NCBI GenBank assembly: GCA_951812955.1
Contig: OX638340.1
Coordinates: forward strand, 2,816,001-2,880,000
Reading direction: 5' to 3'
Source of the DNA: an uncultured Gemmatimonadota bacterium
GTDB taxonomy: Bacteria > JAAXHH01
DNA length: 64,000 nt
Of this stretch, positions 2,898 through 46,934 are shown piece by piece; position 1 is the first letter of the stretch; each line of letters opens with the position of its first letter. The translations under genes and the position numbers were made by a program. A model generated the notes under the pieces. It saw only the letters and a list, made by a program, of their open reading frames with translations, made no database searches and was not told the DNA's origin.

Positions 2898-4172
2898 ATG
2901 CGCGAGGCGCACGGAGGAAATGGCTTGAACTACACGGTATCCGAACCCAAACCCTGGAAACGCGTCCTGGAGATCGAAGTGCCCTCCGATGCGATTCAAT
3001 CCGAACTGAACGCCGCCTACGCGCGTTACAGTAGAGAGGTGCGCCTTCCCGGGTTCCGCCGGGGCAAGGTTCCACTCAGTGTGCTCAAGGCCCGTCTCGG
3101 CAATGAAATCCGGGCGGAAGTGCTCGAGAAGAAAATACCTGAATACCTGAACAGCGCCCACGAAAAGGCCGATATCAAGCCTATTAGCCAGCCCGTGATC
3201 GAAGAGATAGAATTCGACGAAGGACAGGACCTCAAACTCCGGGCCAGTGTGGAAGTCAAGCCCGCCATAGAATTGAAGCAATACAAGGACCTGCGGGTGA
3301 ACCGGCGGACCGTGAACGTGACCGACGAGGATATAGATCAGCGGCTGGAGGGGTTGCGGGAACGATACGCCAGCGTGGTGAACGTCGATGGTGCAGCGGA
3401 ACGGGACCACTTCATCCGGGCCGATATTCAGCATGCGGACAACAGCGGCGTGCCGATCATCGGGCGCAAGGAGGAGAACCAGTTTTTCCAGATCGGTTCC
3501 GGCCGCCTTGGAGAGGATTTCGACACCCAGTTGACCGGGGTCAGGGCCGACGAGGACCGTACCGTCCGGACCACGCTTCCGTCCGACTACCCCGACGAGA
3601 ACATGGCGGGCGGGGAAGCCTGTTTTATCGTGAGTGTCCGTGAGGTCATGGAAAGACAATTGCCGGACGCGGACGACGATTTCGCCGTGGACATCGGCAT
3701 GGAGAGCCTGGACGCCCTGAAACAGTCGATCAGGGAGGAAATCGAGCGGGAACCGGACCGGGAATTGCGCAACGACCTGGTCACGCAGATCGTGGAGGCC
3801 CACGATTTCGAGGTGCCCGAATCCATGATGACCGCCTATCTCGACCAGGTGGTGGCGGACGCGCGCCGTACCACGCGGGATCAGGACGAAGTCGACGAGA
3901 ACGCCCTTCGTCAGCAGTACCGGCCCGTGGCGAACAACCAGATCATGCGCCATCTCATCCTGGACGCCATCGGCGAGCAGGAAGGGCTGGCGGTGGATCA
4001 GGAGGAAGTGGATGAGCGGCTGGAGGCCGTCGCGGCGCGGGGCCAGGCCTCTGTCGACCAGGTTCGCAAACTCTTCCGTGAAAACGGGAGGCTGGAACGC
4101 ATCGAAGCGGATCTCAGGGAGGAGAAGGTCGTTGAGTTTCTCGTGCAGCACGCCGACATACAAGCGGAGTAG
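2898..4172 (+). CDS. tig: trigger factor
   Basis: 424 aa. The N-terminal ribosome-binding region contains the trigger-factor signature GFRRGKVP. Classical position immediately upstream of clpP-clpX-lon. An alternative start is TTG 2925, preceded by GGAGGA at a 6-nt spacing. Confidence 0.9.
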   Translation: MREAHGGNGLNYTVSEPKPWKRVLEIEVPSDAIQSELNAAYARYSREVRLPGFRRGKVPLSVLKARLGNEIRAEVLEKKIPEYLNSAHEKADIKPISQPVIEEIEFDEGQDLKLRASVEVKPAIELKQYKDLRVNRRTVNVTDEDIDQRLEGLRERYASVVNVDGAAERDHFIRADIQHADNSGVPIIGRKEENQFFQIGSGRLGEDFDTQLTGVRADEDRTVRTTLPSDYPDENMAGGEACFIVSVREVMERQLPDADDDFAVDIGMESLDALKQSIREEIEREPDRELRNDLVTQIVEAHDFEVPESMMTAYLDQVVADARRTTRDQDEVDENALRQQYRPVANNQIMRHLILDAIGEQEGLAVDQEEVDERLEAVAARGQASVDQVRKLFRENGRLERIEADLREEKVVEFLVQHADIQAE

Positions 4173-4193
4173 GCCGACATACAAGCGGAGTAG
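4152..4193 (+). repeat. perfect 21-bp tandem duplication (x2) of the last 6 codons plus stop of tig
   Basis: GCCGACATACAAGCGGAGTAG occurs at 4152-4172 and again at 4173-4193. Copy 1 ends with the tig stop codon. Copy 2 supplies a second in-frame TAG just before the clpP RBS AAGGAG. Confidence 0.95.
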
Positions 4194-6131: not shown

Positions 6132-8558
6132 ATGTCTCCCATGATTACCCTGAAGCGCAACGATCCCATTACATTCGACGACAAGCTGCCGCTCATTCCC
6201 CTCCGCGAGGTGGTCGTTTTTCCTTACATGGAATACCCCCTCATTATCGCGCGGGACGCTTCCATCAAGGCCCTTGAACACGGCGTCAACAACGACCGGT
6301 TGCTCTTCCTGACCGCCCAGCGCAATCCCGACATCGAAACCCCCGAAAAGGGCGATGTGCATCGAACGGGGATCGTGGCCCGTATTCTGCAGGTGGTGAA
6401 ACTTCCGAACAACTTGATCCGGGTTCTCGTCGAGGGGATCGTCCGCGCAAAGGTCGTCCGGTTTCTGTCATCGGATCCCTATATGCGAGTGAAAATCGCG
6501 CTGGTCGAGGAAACCGACGACAACCAGGCCGAGGTGCAGGCGAGACTGCGGACGGTCGTGGATCAGTTCTCGGAGTACATAAAGCTGAACCAGCAGGCGC
6601 CCGACGAGATACTGCTGTCACTTCAGAACATGGACGACGCCCAGCGCCTGGCGGACACTATGTCGGCCTTCATCCAGCAAAGCCCCCAGGTGAAGCAGCG
6701 GCTCATCGAGGCGCCGTCGATTATCGAGCAACTCGACGAGTTGGCGGCCATCCTGGCGACGGAACTGGAGATCCTGGAGATCAAGAACCATCTCGACGGC
6801 GAGGTCCGGGACCGAATCACCAAGTCTCAGCGGGAGTTCTTCCTCCAGGAACAGATGCGTGTGATCAAGCAGGAACTGGGTGAACTGGAGGAGTTGCCGG
6901 AAAACCTGGGCGGGCTGGCGCAGCAGGTAGCGGATGCGAAGATGCCCAAAGAAGCCCACGAAAAGGCCATGACTGAACTGGAAAAACTCCAACAGATGCA
7001 TCCGACCTCCCCCGAAGCGACGGTGATCCGCAACTACCTCGAATGGCTCGTCGAAGTGCCGTGGAGAAAACGTACGCGGGACCGCCGGGATATCGGCCGT
7101 GTGGAGTCCGTGCTCGACGCCGATCACTACGGGCTGGAAAAACCGAAGGAACATATCCTCGAGTACTTGTCGGTCATCCAGCTGACACGGCACCTGAAGG
7201 GACCGATCCTGTGCCTGGTCGGTCCCCCGGGCGTGGGCAAGACGTCCCTCGGTCGTTCGATCGCGCACGCCATGGGCCGGAAATTCGTCCGCATGTCCCT
7301 CGGCGGCGTGCACGACGAGGCCGAGATAAGGGGCCATCGCCGGACCTATATCGGTTCCATGCCTGGACGGATCATCCAGGCGATGCGCCGCGCAGGGACC
7401 GTCAATCCGGTGATCCTGCTCGACGAGGTGGACAAGCTGGGGCGGGACGTGCGCGGCGACCCCGCGTCGGCCCTGCTGGAAGTGCTGGATCCCGAACAGA
7501 ACAACGCCTTCAACGACCACTACCTCGAAGTGGATTACGATCTGTCCCGCGTGCTGTTTCTGACGACGGCCAATACGACGGACACCATCCCCCCCGCGCT
7601 GAACGACCGCATGGAGATCCTCGAGCTGCCCGGTTATCTCGAAACCCAGAAACTGGCCATCGCACAGGGATTCCTGGTGCCGAAACAGATCGAAGCCCAC
7701 GGACTGAAAAAAGAACGCGTCACGTTCAGGAAGGACGCCCTGCTGGGCATCATCCGGGAATATACCCGCGAAGCCGGCGTCCGGGGCCTGGAACGGCACA
7801 TCGCCGCGATCTGCCGCAAGCTGGCCCGCAAGGTGGTGGAAGGCAGTGCACGGAAACGGATGCAGGTTACGCGCAAACAGCTTTCAAACTACCTCGGCGT
7901 TCCGCGCTACCTGGACTCCGAAGTCATGAAACAGGATTCGGTGGGCCTTGCCACCGGGCTTGCATGGACGCAGTCGGGCGGGGACATTCTCTCCATCGAG
8001 GTCAGCGTCCTGAACCGCCGCGGTTCGGGACGGCTGACGCTGACCGGCCAACTGGGGGAAGTGATGCAGGAATCGGCCCACGCGGCGCTTACCTATGCCC
8101 GGTCCAGGGCCGCGTCACTGGGACTCGAGCCGGACTTCTACAAGAACGTCGAGATCCACGTGCACATGCCCGAAGGCGCGATCCCAAAGGACGGTCCGTC
8201 CGCCGGGATCACCATCGCGACGGCGCTCTGCTCGGCGCTGACCGGCGTGCCGGTTCGTTGCGATATTGCCATGACGGGCGAAATCACGCTACGGGGCAAC
8301 GTGTTACCCATCGGCGGCCTGAACGAGAAACTGATTGCCGCGCTCCGGGCCGGGATCAGGGAAGTGTTGATACCGCTCCGAAACCGGAAGGACCTGGTGG
8401 ATGTCCCGCCGGAGGTGAAGGGCGAGATCGAAATCTGTCCCGTATCGACCATGGACGAAGTTCTGAAACGAACCATGGGCATTCAGGTCGTGGAATCCCC
8501 CGTACCCGGGCTGATCCCCAGTCCGTCCGTCGCGCAGCCGGCCATTAAGCCAGTCTAG
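6132..8558 (+). CDS. lon: ATP-dependent protease Lon (LonA)
   Basis: 808 aa. LON N-domain. Walker [10 protein letters not shown]. Protease Ser block [15 protein letters not shown] and Lys block [10 protein letters not shown]. Confidence 0.97.
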
Positions 8559-8641
8559 CCGTCCGGCCCTCGCAGGCCTAGCCGTCCGTCGCGCAGCCGG
8601 CCATTAAGCCAGTCTAGCCGTCCGGCTCTCGCAGGTCTCCT
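8524..8641. repeat. 59-bp tandem duplication (x2, about 55/59 identical) spanning the convergent 3' ends of lon and tsaE
   Basis: Copy 1 is 8524-8582 and copy 2 is 8583-8641. The first 44 nt are identical. Each copy carries a CTAG. lon stops at the TAG in copy 1 (8556-8558). tsaE stops on the opposite strand at the CTAG in copy 2 (8614-8616). Confidence 0.9.
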
Positions 8642-9150
8642 CCTGGGTACCTCAGAGCTCGGGAAACATCTGCTTCCAGATCGGAAACCAGGTTTCCGGC
8701 GCCGGTGATCTCCAGCATTCTCCCCGTGCCTTCTCCGATTTCGATATGGACCGTGATCGCGCTGGAGGGCATGATCTCCGGGAATTTGTCTCCCCATTCA
8801 ATGAGGCAGACACGAGTGTCCACGTACTCGTCGAAACCGAGATCCAGCACCGAATCCGCGCTGTCCAGGCGGTAAAGGTCGAAGTGGGCCACCGGAACCC
8901 GGCCGTCGTATTCGTTCACGAGGGTGAAGGTGGGACTCGTTACAGGTTCGCCGATGCCGAGCCCAACGCAGATCCCCTGTATGAAACAGGTCTTCCCCGC
9001 GCCGAGATCGCCGGACACCCGCACCGTGTCACCCGGTTCCAGCCAATTGGCCAGGCGCCCTCCGATCCGTGCAGTCTGTCCCGGACCGTCCGACCTGAAA
9101 CTGCGCTGTTCCCGATGGACCGGCGTGTCCGAATGAATAGGATCGCTCAC
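8614..9150 (-). CDS. tsaE: tRNA t6A37 biosynthesis ATPase TsaE
   Basis: 178 aa. P-loop GDLGAGKT followed by TSPTFTLVNEY and HFDLYRL, typical of YjeE/TsaE. GTG start overlapping the serS stop (GTGA). Confidence 0.85.
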   Translation of the reverse strand: MSDPIHSDTPVHREQRSFRSDGPGQTARIGGRLANWLEPGDTVRVSGDLGAGKTCFIQGICVGLGIGEPVTSPTFTLVNEYDGRVPVAHFDLYRLDSADSVLDLGFDEYVDTRVCLIEWGDKFPEIMPSSAITVHIEIGEGTGRMLEITGAGNLVSDLEADVSRALRYPGGDLREPDG

Positions 9151-10415: not shown

Positions 10416-10547
10416 ATTCCCTCCGTGACCGGTCGCGCCGGTCGAACGGGCCGCTTTCCTTGTAACCATGGGTTGTTTTAACGCTACAAATCACGGTAAA
10501 ATAGGAGGATGTCACCGTTCCCGGCAAGCAGAAACGTCGTAAGCCTG

Positions 10548-10642
10548 CCGAAGGGCACGGCATGCGCGGAAGGACCGTCCCGGTTCGCCGCCTACCGAAG
10601 GGCGCGGCATGCGCTGGAAGGACCGTCCCGGTTCGCCGCCGA
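10548..10642. repeat. 47/48-bp tandem duplication (x2) in the DUF2400-serS spacer
   Basis: CCGAAGGGCACGGCATGCGCGGAAGGACCGTCCCGGTTCGCCGCCTA (10548-10594) is repeated at 10595-10642 with 3 substitutions (2 internal, 1 at the last base) and a 1-nt insertion. Confidence 0.9.
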
Positions 10643-30794: not shown

Positions 30795-32603
30795 ATGGAC
30801 GCTGGGAGGATCGGTAGTCTCATGCATGCTTTATTCAGGGTTGCGGCGTCCCCGTGTTCCCGATTTAGGGCGTCCCCGTGTTCCCGGTTTGCGGTATTCT
30901 TCCTTTTCCCGTTTCTTTTCCTTTCCTGCGACCTTTCCAATAGCCCTCCGGATGCGACGCGCCCGGAGATGCTCTTCACGGACATCGCGCCTTCCTCCGG
31001 AATCTCGTTCCGTCATGCCAACGGGAAGACCGGCCAATACTACTTCCTTGAAACGGTGGCGTCCGGTGGTGGATTCGTCGATTACGACGGGGACGGCGAC
31101 CTCGACATCTACCTGCTCAACGGCTCGGCCATCCCGGGTTTCGTGCCGGACCTGCCCCTGTCCAACGCGCTTTATCGCAACGAAGGAGACGGATCCTTCA
31201 CGGACGTGACCGATCAGGCCGGCGTGGGAAATCCGGACGGTTACGGGATGGGCATGGCCGTCGCGGATTACGACAACGACGGCGACGACGACCTGTTCGT
31301 CACGAACTATGGGGAGAACATCCTCTATCGCAACGAGGGGAACGGGACTTTCCGCGACGTGACCGGCCGGGCGATGCCGCCGTTACCCCGCAGTCCGATG
31401 TTTTCGACCAGCGCGGCGTTCCTGGATTACGACCGGGACGGGCACCTGGACCTCTACGTGTGCGCGTACGTCGAATTCGACTTCGAAACCAACAAGCGAT
31501 GCATCCGGGACGGCATCCAGTCCTACTGCGGACCCGATATCTATGATGGGGCGGCCGATCTGCTTTACCGGAACAACGGCGACGGGACTTTTTCTGACGT
31601 ATCCTCGGAGGCGGGTATCGCCAATCCGGACGGAAAAGGACTCGGAGTCGTGGGGGGCGACTACGACGGCGATGGCTGGACGGATATATTCGTAGCCAAC
31701 GACCTGACGCCGGATTTCCTTTACCGGAACAACGGCGACGGCACGTTTACGGACATGGCGCTGCTGGCGGGCGTGGCCTATGGCGAGGATGGCGTCGCCC
31801 GGGCAGGCATGGGGGTAGATTTCGGAGACTACGACCGGAACGGGACGCCGGACATCTACGTGACCAATTTCTCCCTGGAACCCAACTCGTTGCACCGGAA
31901 CAACGGAAACGGCACGTTTACCGAAACCACCTTCGGTGCGGGCGTGGGCAATACCACGCTTCTTTCCCTGGGTTTCGGTACGGCCTTCAAAGATTTCGAC
32001 CACGATGGCTGGCTGGATATCTTCGCGGCGAACGGCCATGTGATCGACAATATCTCCCTGTTCGATCCGACGGTGACTTACGCGCAGACCAATCAACTGT
32101 TCCGGAACGAAGGAAACGGGGTTTTCACCGACGTCAGCGCCGGCGCCGGCGCTCCCTTCCACGTGGAGCGCGTGCACCGCGGCGCGGCCTTCGGAGACGT
32201 GGACAACGACGGTGACGTCGATATCCTGGTCACCACCGTGAACGACGTCCCACTGTTGTTGCGGAACGACGGGAACGAGCGGCCCGGTGGAAGCGGCGGT
32301 CCCACCAGTCTGCTCGTCGCCACCGAGGGCGTCCAAAGCAATCGCAACGGGATCGGTGCGCGCGTAACCGTGGTCACGGATGCCGTGCGCCAGTCGCGGG
32401 AAATCCGAAGCGCCTACAGCTACCTGGCGGCCAATGATCTCAGGGCGCACTTCGGGCTAGGTGCGCATGACGGGGCGGATTCGGTGATCGTGGACTGGCC
32501 GACCGGCACAAGGGATGTCGTAACGGGAGTCGATGGCGGCCAGTGGATCACGATCCGCGAAGGCGCAGGTATCGTCTCGCGAACGCCACTTCGCCCGCGT
32601 TGA
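30795..32603 (+). CDS. CRTAC1/ASPIC-UnbV family protein with FG-GAP/VCBS repeats
   Basis: 602 aa. Repeated DYDGDGDLDIY / LYRNEGDGSFTDVT / LYRNNGDGTF modules. C-terminal UnbV_ASPIC block NRNGIGARVTV...SYLAANDLRAHFGLG. Lipoprotein-like FLFLSC. The start could also be ATG 30822. Confidence 0.85.
   Translation: MDAGRIGSLMHALFRVAASPCSRFRASPCSRFAVFFLFPFLFLSCDLSNSPPDATRPEMLFTDIAPSSGISFRHANGKTGQYYFLETVASGGGFVDYDGDGDLDIYLLNGSAIPGFVPDLPLSNALYRNEGDGSFTDVTDQAGVGNPDGYGMGMAVADYDNDGDDDLFVTNYGENILYRNEGNGTFRDVTGRAMPPLPRSPMFSTSAAFLDYDRDGHLDLYVCAYVEFDFETNKRCIRDGIQSYCGPDIYDGAADLLYRNNGDGTFSDVSSEAGIANPDGKGLGVVGGDYDGDGWTDIFVANDLTPDFLYRNNGDGTFTDMALLAGVAYGEDGVARAGMGVDFGDYDRNGTPDIYVTNFSLEPNSLHRNNGNGTFTETTFGAGVGNTTLLSLGFGTAFKDFDHDGWLDIFAANGHVIDNISLFDPTVTYAQTNQLFRNEGNGVFTDVSAGAGAPFHVERVHRGAAFGDVDNDGDVDILVTTVNDVPLLLRNDGNERPGGSGGPTSLLVATEGVQSNRNGIGARVTVVTDAVRQSREIRSAYSYLAANDLRAHFGLGAHDGADSVIVDWPTGTRDVVTGVDGGQWITIREGAGIVSRTPLRPR
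30845..30892 (+). repeat. 24-bp in-frame tandem duplication (x2) inside the CRTAC1 signal-peptide region
   Basis: GGCGTCCCCGTGTTCCCGATTTAG / GGCGTCCCCGTGTTCCCGGTTTGC, encoding ASPCSRFR-ASPCSRFA. Confidence 0.9.
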
Positions 32604-45729: not shown

Positions 45730-45773
45730 GGTGGAGACGAACTCCGGTACGGTCAGGTGACTGGAAGGGACGC

Positions 45774-45862
45774 TCCGCACAGCGCAATTTCCCGCGACCG
45801 TGCAGCGCGATTTTCTGCTCCGCACAGCGTAGTGTCCCGCTCCGCTCAGCGCAGTTTCCCGC
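45774..45862 (-). repeat. four tandem ~22-bp units derived from the 3' end (last codons plus stop) of the D-TA family gene
   Basis: Units: TCCGCACAGCGCAATTTCCCGC (45774-45795), GACCGTGCAGCGCGATTTTCTGC (45796-45818), TCCGCACAGCGTAGTGTCCCGC (45819-45840), TCCGCTCAGCGCAGTTTCCCGC (45841-45862). The last unit is the real gene end (...GKLR-stop, stop at 45846-45848). Confidence 0.85.
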
Positions 45863-46934
45863 GGCCGAGAATAGGCCATACGGTCTCGACGACCCCGTTG
45901 CGGATTCCGTAGAGGTGGTCGTGAAGAAACAGGGTGACGTCGGTGTAGGCCACCATGAGGTCGAGTTTGTCGCCGACGGCGATTTCGTGATTTGGACTGT
46001 TGAAGGTCACGGTGCCGTGTTCCGCCGACATGCGCACGCTCTTTACGTCTTCGACGCCCACCGGCATGGGCATGCCGAACCACGCGGGCACCGTCTTGAA
46101 CCCGGCGTCCACGATTAGCCGGTCCGGTTCGGGGCGGCTGGTGACCGAAACGTGCACGTATATCGCCGGGTCGGTCCGAACCCCCCAGAGGGAATACATC
46201 ACGTCGTTGAAGATCGCGCCGCCCGCCTGGATCTCGGTGATCCCTTCCAGGTCGGGTGTAACCGACAGTGTGCCGCTTCCTCCGCCGCTCACGATGTCGC
46301 AGGGCAGTCCCGCGGCCCGGCACCGTTCCGCGGAATCCACGAGGTCTCCCACGGCCCGTCTGATCTCCCCGTGTTTCCAGTCGGAGCCTTCCTCCACGCA
46401 GGCATGTCCCTCCCAGGCCATGACGCCCCGGAATCGCAGGCCTGCAGTCTCGTGGACCTTGCGGGCGAGTGCGACGACCGCGTCACCGGGCCGGACTCCG
46501 GCCCGTTCCATGCCCGTGTTCAGTTCGATGAGCACGCCGACTTCGACGCCGGTTTCGACCGCGGTGCGACCCAGGTCCACCAGCGTGGCGTCGCTGTCGA
46601 CGGCGACTTTCACGTCCGCCTGCCTGCAGAGATGGGCCAACCGGGTGTATTTCGGCGGACCCACCACCTGGTTGGCGATCAGGAGGTCCTCGACGCCTCC
46701 CGCGACCATGACCTCGGCCTCGCCGAGCTTGGCGCAGGTGACCCCGATCGCGCCGGCCTTCAACAATCTGTGGGCAATTGCCGGGATCTTGACGCCCTTG
46801 ATGTGCGGGCGCCAGTCCACGCCGGCCTCTTTCAATCGATTCCCCACGGTTCGAATGTTGCTTTCGAGGCGATCCAGGTCTACCCACAGCACCGGGGTAT
46901 CCAGATCCTCCTTATGTATTCCGATCTCGTCCAA
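45846..46934 (-). CDS. D-TA family PLP enzyme (D-threonine aldolase / D-serine dehydratase-like, alanine-racemase fold)
   Basis: 362 aa. N-terminus DLDTPVLWVDLDRLESNIR. PLP-lysine region WRPHIKGVK. C-terminal beta domain. Confidence 0.75.
   Translation of the reverse strand: MDEIGIHKEDLDTPVLWVDLDRLESNIRTVGNRLKEAGVDWRPHIKGVKIPAIAHRLLKAGAIGVTCAKLGEAEVMVAGGVEDLLIANQVVGPPKYTRLAHLCRQADVKVAVDSDATLVDLGRTAVETGVEVGVLIELNTGMERAGVRPGDAVVALARKVHETAGLRFRGVMAWEGHACVEEGSDWKHGEIRRAVGDLVDSAERCRAAGLPCDIVSGGGSGTLSVTPDLEGITEIQAGGAIFNDVMYSLWGVRTDPAIYVHVSVTSRPEPDRLIVDAGFKTVPAWFGMPMPVGVEDVKSVRMSAEHGTVTFNSPNHEIAVGDKLDLMVAYTDVTLFLHDHLYGIRNGVVETVWPILGRGKLR

Follow-up and report, generated by a model that had tools for sequence, protein, structure and literature searches.

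Replication slippage or unequal exchange gives rise to minisatellite, or VNTR, repeats and alters their copy number. The junction between the convergent lon and tsaE genes analysed here is like such a repeat. It carries head-to-tail copies of a unit, numbering from one to three per strain, the multi-copy arrays have one unit boundary in common, and the paralogous units are sometimes closer to each other than are the orthologous ones. It is unlike a minisatellite in that the unit straddles two converging stop codons, so that the ends of the array are coding while its middle comprises unused gene tails.

A second related arrangement is the stop–stop overlap. Overlaps of 4 nt between convergent prokaryotic genes (CTAA, TTAA, CTAG and TTAG), and the formation of an overlap via mutation of a stop codon, have been described (Lillo and Krakauer 2007, PMC2174442). 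In a comparable manner tsaE appears to have lost a TGA stop codon and to have run on to the reverse-complement TAG within a CTAG; one close strain (L081) has the 4-nt CTAG overlap, and a more distant relative (L005) has TTAA. The window (the whole 64-kb stretch of DNA that was analysed) differs from these overlaps. The CTAG used by tsaE is there a duplicate, and the stop codons of lon and tsaE are 55 nt apart, so that the 4-nt CTAG overlap of convergent genes is absent from the window itself. The third comparison is with the bidirectional intrinsic terminator, with which the spacer shares a position between two converging genes. It differs from such a terminator in having no G+C-rich hairpin with a T-run, and no excess folding energy.

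RESULTS

The lon–tsaE junction of the window

The identities of lon and tsaE were assigned from family models, with both scores lying above the curated cut-offs (TIGR00763 and TIGR00150). The 5′ end of tsaE overlaps serS by 4 nt. The features of the junction are as follows.

6132–8558, plus strand: lon (endopeptidase La) coding sequence, stop codon TAG at 8556–8558; TIGR00763, 936 bits, residues 20–781 of 808
9150–8614, minus strand: tsaE coding sequence, 178 codons, stop codon the complement of 8614–8616; TIGR00150, 106 bits, residues 26–150
8523–8579, plus strand: repeat copy 1, comprising the actual lon 3′ end (11 codons plus TAG, 8523–8558) and then an unused copy of the tsaE tail (8559–8579)
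8555–8558, no strand assigned: palindromic CTAG with the lon stop codon; its duplicate at 8614–8617 gives the tsaE stop codon on the other strand
8580–8581, no strand assigned: junction bases AG between the copies, making a third CTAG with 8578–8579
8582–8638, plus strand: repeat copy 2, comprising an unused copy of the lon 3′ end (8582–8613, plus CTAG 8614–8617) and then the actual tsaE 3′ end (minus strand, 8617–8638)
8617–8661, minus strand: clade-specific C-terminal extension of TsaE, RALRYPGGDLREPDG, 15 codons, reading to the CTA at 8614–8616 of the duplicated CTAG, the first in-frame stop codon

The 57-nt copies form a head-to-tail direct repeat with a start-to-start distance of 59 nt. 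They are identical at 55 of 57 positions (96%), and identity is complete over the first 45 nt. A 45-nt probe has two exact sites in the 64-kb window, both of them at the repeat, and finds no match in any of 100 dinucleotide-preserving shuffles. TRF gives a period of 59, 1.9 copies, 98% matches and a score of 219. The 59-bp duplication proposed from the sequence alone is therefore borne out. The ORF coordinates likewise agree with the proposal that each copy contains CTAG, with lon using the TAG at 8556–8558 and tsaE the complement of 8614–8616. TRF also lists a row of period 32 with 62% matches, the score of which is equalled by 42 of 2000 shuffles. The tail of lon, CCGTCCGTCGCGCAG, resembles the adjoining CCGTCCGGCTCTCGCAG; an earlier round of duplication behind this likeness is weakly suggested, and is not claimed here.

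The 55-nt spacer (8559–8613) consists of the unused tsaE-tail copy, the AG dinucleotide and the unused lon-tail copy. The first of these matches 8618–8638 at 19 of 21 positions, while the lon-tail copy plus its CTAG is identical to 8523–8558. The spacer had been described as the ghost termini of tsaE and lon; this was right in composition, with boundaries that lay off by one to three bases. The third CTAG (8578–8581), located on the junction of the copies, was absent from that description. The tetranucleotide is depleted some 16-fold in the window, with 14 observed vs 227 expected.

Copy 1 encodes Lon residues 798–808, and copy 2 encodes TsaE residues 172–178 (DLREPDG and the stop codon). The repeated parts fall outside the family models of both proteins, the final 27 residues of Lon lying beyond the reach of its model. 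The Lon tail QP(S/A/I)IKP(V/L), followed directly by the stop codon, is conserved across most of the group, with the exceptions of INVH in L005, L010 and L016, and IKPH in L004, each likewise terminal.

The 3′ end of tsaE

TsaE ends at codon 163 in all 16 of the more distant genomes (L003–L017 and L090), and also in L002 and L097–L101 (the L002 type). In the distant genomes the protein terminates with DLExAV(S/R), 12–15 residues past the conserved LEITGAG motif, and the L002 type has the same DLExAV(S/R) terminus. The stop codon after codon 163 is TGA in L090 and in the L002 type, the latter being seen in five independent assemblies. In the window codon 164 is CGA (the complement of 8659–8661), a single substitution from the TGA of L002 and L090, and the other in-clade strains examined have CGA at the TGA position with 11 to 17 further codons. 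The sequence of the read-on is variable. TsaE lengths in other strains are 165, 169, 175 or 181 aa, with varying frames. The 12 strain variants with a length of 178 aa share 71% identity in the tail, vs 94% in the core (residues 21–163). From these comparisons the TsaE tail in the repeat looks like a poorly conserved, unconstrained extension that would have arisen by stop loss. As had been claimed, the duplication leaves the proteins intact, Lon being unchanged since the duplicated segment includes its stop codon; the end of TsaE within the repeat appears to be read-on following stop loss.

The L002 type combines two copies of the repeat with the early TGA, giving 99 nt between the stop codons. 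The outgroups and the L002 type keep the tsaE stop 15 codons upstream, so that in the ancestor the stop codons most likely did not abut but were separated by some 41 nt. A duplication followed later by stop loss takes two events. The order given in the sequence-only reading, of stop loss, overlap, duplication and then regain of TGA in L002, takes three and is less likely. The clade is star-like, the L002 type is not placeable as its first branch, and regain of the TGA in that type would be one transition (CGA to TGA), under which the three-event order may hold.

Copy number among close relatives

A scan of one genome per species provided 17 close relatives, labelled Latescibacterota, Gemmatimonadetes or ‘bacterium’, and further strains were added by exact-protein look-ups. 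Related loci are denoted by L numbers. Several of the relatives were recovered from metagenomes of sponges and corals, and complete chromosomes are among them. The TsaE sequence of the window belongs to a protein cluster, although a look-up with that exact sequence gave no record for the contig of the window. A scan of JGI metagenomes with a conserved 21-mer of tsaE returned one chance match (L105) and L106, a contig already in the comparison. The order clpX, lon, tsaE, serS, with lon and tsaE convergent, is kept in 17 of 17 species-level relatives.

A tight clade with at least 97% lon nucleotide identity comprises the window, L094/95, L104, L082, L002/L097–101, L081, L091, L092/93, L001/84/86/87 and L102/103. 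The nearest outgroup is L090 (92.7% lon identity). It is without the 59-nt repeat, which therefore arose after the split from L090. Within the clade the copy number varies from one to three with unchanged flanks:

One copy: L081
Two copies: the window, L094/95, L104, the L001 group, the L002 group, L091 and L092/93
Three copies: L082 and L102/103

All the multi-copy arrays have a homologous boundary between their units, reading CCTAG followed by CCGTCCG, or CTTG followed by CC(G/T)TCCG. This argues for a single founding event rather than repeated independent ones.

The lon-tail parts are identical at 36 of 37 positions within the window and within L001, while the orthologous parts match at 33 of 37 between the two. 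The copies have diverged in L002, L092 and L102 (29–32 of 37) and in L091, for which an indel shifts the count (22 of 37). Homogenisation in L092 has affected the other half of the unit. Judged on these identities, the greater closeness of paralogous than of orthologous units in some strains is the pattern of concerted evolution. Site patterns group L001, L086 and L081 (15 shared derived sites) and the window with L094 (six sites). Only these two groupings are well supported; the remainder of the clade forms a star, and its many conflicting sites suggest recombination.

A single-copy junction with a shared CTAG had been expected in some relatives, and it is found in L081, with the gene order kept in all. 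The TAG of lon and the CTA of tsaE there share one CTAG in a 4-nt overlap. The L081 contig is of low quality, with frameshifts in lon and serS. As L081 is nested beside the two-copy strains L001 and L086, its single copy is probably a secondary collapse of the array.

A search for function in the spacer

A consensus scan found no terminator-like site in 8500–8700, and its sole match (8762–8781) is inside tsaE. The spacer RNA folds no better than shuffled sequences, with z-scores of −0.58 for the plus strand and −1.23 for the minus strand. At gathering thresholds Rfam gave nothing over the whole window except a tRNA-Leu at 2665–2746. No further dispersed copy is present in the 64-kb window with up to three mismatches, and none lies away from the junction in 104 loci. 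No clear case of microhomology was identified at the ends of the repeat.

Over the 55 nt of the spacer the plus strand has 24 C vs 16 G, a C-richness that would fit Rho loading while providing no evidence for it. Perfect conservation is seen in the non-coding copy of the lon tail in the window and in L001, where the rest of the unit differs; gene conversion explains this, and sequence constraint could do so.

Other duplications at the junction, in the block and in the window

Tandem duplications of other, unrelated kinds occur at the lon–tsaE junction in relatives, including some in which the two genes do not abut:

46-nt unit: tsaE 3′ end plus stop codon, in L003 (copies 100% identical), L006 (83%) and L008 (85%)
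83-nt unit: lon 3′ end, with an assembly gap inside, in L004
10-nt unit: CGTCCATYAA, rewriting the Lon tail to terminal INVH, in L005 and L010
16-nt unit: includes the lon stop codon, in L090

At the same junction L005 has overlapping TTAA stop codons, and L011 has a gap of 3 nt. Five or more duplication events at one junction in about 20 genomes is a large number, which may point to a mutational hot spot at this site or to selection for a spacer, and not to tolerance alone.

Other spacers of the same 12-kb block contain tandem arrays in several genomes (holA/DUF2400, DUF2400/serS, rsgA/holA, DUF6917/rsgA and lon/clpX). In the window the 3′ end of tig, TAG included, is duplicated perfectly over 21 nt (4152–4193) just upstream of clpP, at a co-directional junction; most of the clade and L090 share this duplication, and L001 lacks it. 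Elsewhere in the window four copies of a 22-nt unit (45771–45862) occupy the 3′ end of a minus-strand gene, and the convergent spacer 59093/59194 holds an 18-nt array. On a crude gene map, gene interiors account for 84% of the window, yet six of its 11 tandem arrays are located elsewhere, and all five of those inside genes have periods divisible by three. Such placement and periods are what a general mutational process would leave once selection had acted on it as a filter. The densities of arrays with a TRF score of at least 80, per 10 kb, are:

Window: 1.09
Clade: 0.55
63 unrelated bacterial loci: 0.17

Strong arrays are thus about three to six times denser than in unrelated bacteria, which hints at a lineage that is moderately repeat-prone rather than extraordinary. 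At a low TRF threshold the density of tandem repeats equals that of unrelated bacteria, and the enrichment is confined to arrays scoring at least 60.

DISCUSSION

The repeat is best explained as a strain-variable, neutral duplication of the VNTR type, made by slippage and tolerated since it spans a stop codon, to which a separate loss of the tsaE stop codon was added later. We assign this reading a probability of about 0.7. Before the strains with at least 97% lon identity diverged, a segment of some 58–60 nt would have been duplicated in their common ancestor, consisting of the last 11 codons of lon, the TAG and about 21–23 nt downstream. The duplication would have been harmless, leaving Lon intact at a convergent junction without a promoter, and so would have persisted. 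The array would then have been resized, by loss to one copy in L081 and by gain to three in L082 and L102/L103. In some strains, including the window, adjacent units would have been homogenised, such that the non-coding lon-tail copy equals the real one. Separately, and probably later, the TGA of tsaE would have become CGA, and the reading frame would have been lengthened by 15 codons, as far as the CTA within the duplicated palindrome CTAG. That each gene uses the CTAG of its own copy is then a by-product of duplicating a palindromic stop and losing a stop codon. We infer the slippage mechanism, the order of events and the neutrality, the last of these from the absence of functional signals.

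The sequence-only reading held that lon and tsaE once shared one CTAG, and that the duplication separated the stop codons and would relieve convergent transcription or ribosome collision. On this model the duplication was selected for that separation, which would also let the two tails evolve independently. A single-copy junction does exist in L081, the TTAA overlap of L005 and the 3-nt gap of L011 indicate that abutting states can be reached in the group, most strains of the close clade have at least two copies, and several independent duplications have struck the junction. Nevertheless we consider this explanation unlikely. L081 stands beside two-copy strains on a contig ridden with frameshifts, and the older stop of tsaE lies 15 codons upstream in the outgroups and in the L002 type, which argues against an overlapping single-copy ancestor. 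The proposed relief of overlap or collision fares no better. The L002 type has duplicated without any such need, its stops being 99 nt apart; the spacer has neither a terminator-like site nor significant structure; and similar duplications have occurred at gene ends that neither abut nor converge, as at the co-directional tig–clpP junction. A little more doubtful again is a mutational hot spot, at which head-on transcription units, or transcription meeting replication, would stall forks and lead to template switching whatever the effect. The junction has seen at least five different duplication events in about 20 related genomes, and the convergent spacer 59093/59194 also holds a tandem array. 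Yet arrays occur in most of the other spacers of the block, where the genes are divergent or co-directional (holA/DUF2400, DUF2400/serS, rsgA/holA, lon/clpX and the tig 3′ end), so that, with tolerance allowed for, the junction does not clearly stand out. We regard as equally doubtful a broader scheme for this lineage of sponge-associated bacteria, in which tandem duplication of gene termini together with their stop codons would be the main way in which intergenic spacers arise and change in size. At convergent pairs such duplications would be favoured, through selection or a collision-driven mutational bias, and would uncouple genes that stop loss had driven together, in a cycle of overlap and release seen as strains with one, two and three copies.

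There is still less to commend the unit as a functional element, whether a small RNA, a protein-binding site, a Rho loading site or a dispersed REP- or MITE-like sequence, in which case copy number would matter. The C-rich plus strand resembles that of Rho loading sites, and the perfect conservation of the non-coding lon-tail copy in some strains might be taken in its favour. However, the unit occurs twice in 64 kb and nowhere off the junction in 104 loci, no Rfam family reaches threshold, and the folding energy equals that of shuffles on both strands. Moreover, the non-coding copies drift freely in L002, L091, L092 and L102, and a viable strain with one copy exists. A functional element is therefore very unlikely. 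Short tandem repeats are sometimes mis-assembled, and there is an N-run gap within the L004 repeat, with another in L085 that falls in the 3′ end of lon shortly before the repeat; but that the duplication is an artefact of assembly is scarcely credible. The two-copy form is found in independent assemblies from different samples and technologies, both in complete chromosomes of 3.8–3.9 Mb (L001 and L086) and in SPAdes or MEGAHIT contigs, and the copies bear strain-specific substitutions.

A neutral, stop-spanning duplication with a separate stop loss thus calls on known processes in a new instance. The structural part of the sequence-only reading stands, the duplication having put 55 nt between the stop codons with Lon unchanged; its adaptive and historical parts are not supported. 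Neither the last 15 residues of this TsaE nor the spacer should be taken as functional features. There is little of general importance here beyond a worked example and a caveat for annotation. The caveat is that gene callers will give TsaE proteins of 163–181 aa in near-identical strains for trivial reasons. The example is small and clean: a duplication spanning a stop codon, a palindromic CTAG and the loss of a stop together mimic a designed arrangement, and close strains, compared for copy number (one, two or three) and for the state of their units (homogenised or drifted), show how history can be told apart from purpose.

Duplications that carry a stop codon

The tandem duplication across the convergent lon and tsaE 3′ ends is accompanied by the following elements at other gene ends (window coordinates).

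4152-4193: perfect tandem duplication of the 21-nt unit GCCGACATACAAGCGGAGTAG (x2) at the 3′ end of tig
45771-45862: 22-nt tandem array of approximately four copies, 71% matches

The tig unit comprises the six final codons of trigger factor together with its TAG stop, and the ribosome-binding site of clpP lies directly downstream of the duplicated end. Among related loci from sponge- and coral-associated metagenome-assembled genomes the duplication is found in L002, L091, L092 and L094 of the close clade and in the nearest outgroup L090; it is missing in L001, also of the close clade. It is a further stop-spanning duplication, strain-variable in copy number. The 22-nt array spans the stop (45846-45848) of the gene at 45846-46934 on the minus strand and continues beyond it, the downstream units having ACA at the position of the TCA stop in the real unit.

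Base composition predicts 227 CTAG sites across the whole window and 14 are observed, a depletion of approximately 16-fold; GATC and TCGA, by contrast, show an approximately 2-fold enrichment. Stop codons are carried by 5 of the 14 CTAG sites, and three of the 14 lie inside the lon/tsaE repeat.

Other repeats and the tsaE/serS junction

59120-59164: 18-nt tandem array, 2.4 copies, 88%, in the spacer of another convergent gene pair
10543-10640: tandem duplication of a 48-nt unit, 2.1 copies, 94%, in the spacer separating the DUF2400 gene from the start of serS
30845-30890: 24-nt in-frame duplication, 95%, close to the predicted start of the ORF at 30795-32603
L011 9916-10003 and L008 9981-10017 (locus coordinates): 9-nt in-frame repeat GGCCTGGGT within clpX, up to 9.8 copies
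9147-9150, minus strand: 4-nt overlap of the co-directional tsaE start and serS stop

The genes flanking the 18-nt array end at 59093 (plus strand) and 59194 (minus strand). The DUF2400-serS spacer of L091 and L092 holds a 47-nt array homologous to the 48-nt array of the window, and that of the more distant L005 and L011 holds arrays that differ from it. The 24-nt duplication has the predicted translation ASPCSRFR/ASPCSRFA, and is either an N-terminal repeat or lies upstream of the real start. Given the clpX repeat, the protein of some relatives is expected to contain a low-complexity insertion that is variable.

About half of the examined relatives retain the tsaE/serS overlap: tsaE starts exactly at the end of the serS match in L001-L008, L013, L016, L086 and L090-L094; the two matches are apart in L009-L012, L014, L015 and L017.

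The Lon tail in relatives

L005 6501-6529 and L010 6509-6529 (locus coordinates): 10-nt micro-duplication CGTCCATYAA in the Lon tail

This duplication creates a frameshift and a new stop, giving a tail of ...QPSINVH* as against ...QPSIKPL*, and in L005 a third unit leads to a TTAA overlap of the lon and tsaE stops. L016 has the same ...QPSINVH* tail. Since the three genomes with this tail are not adjacent in the lon tree, the micro-duplication may be a recurrent event.
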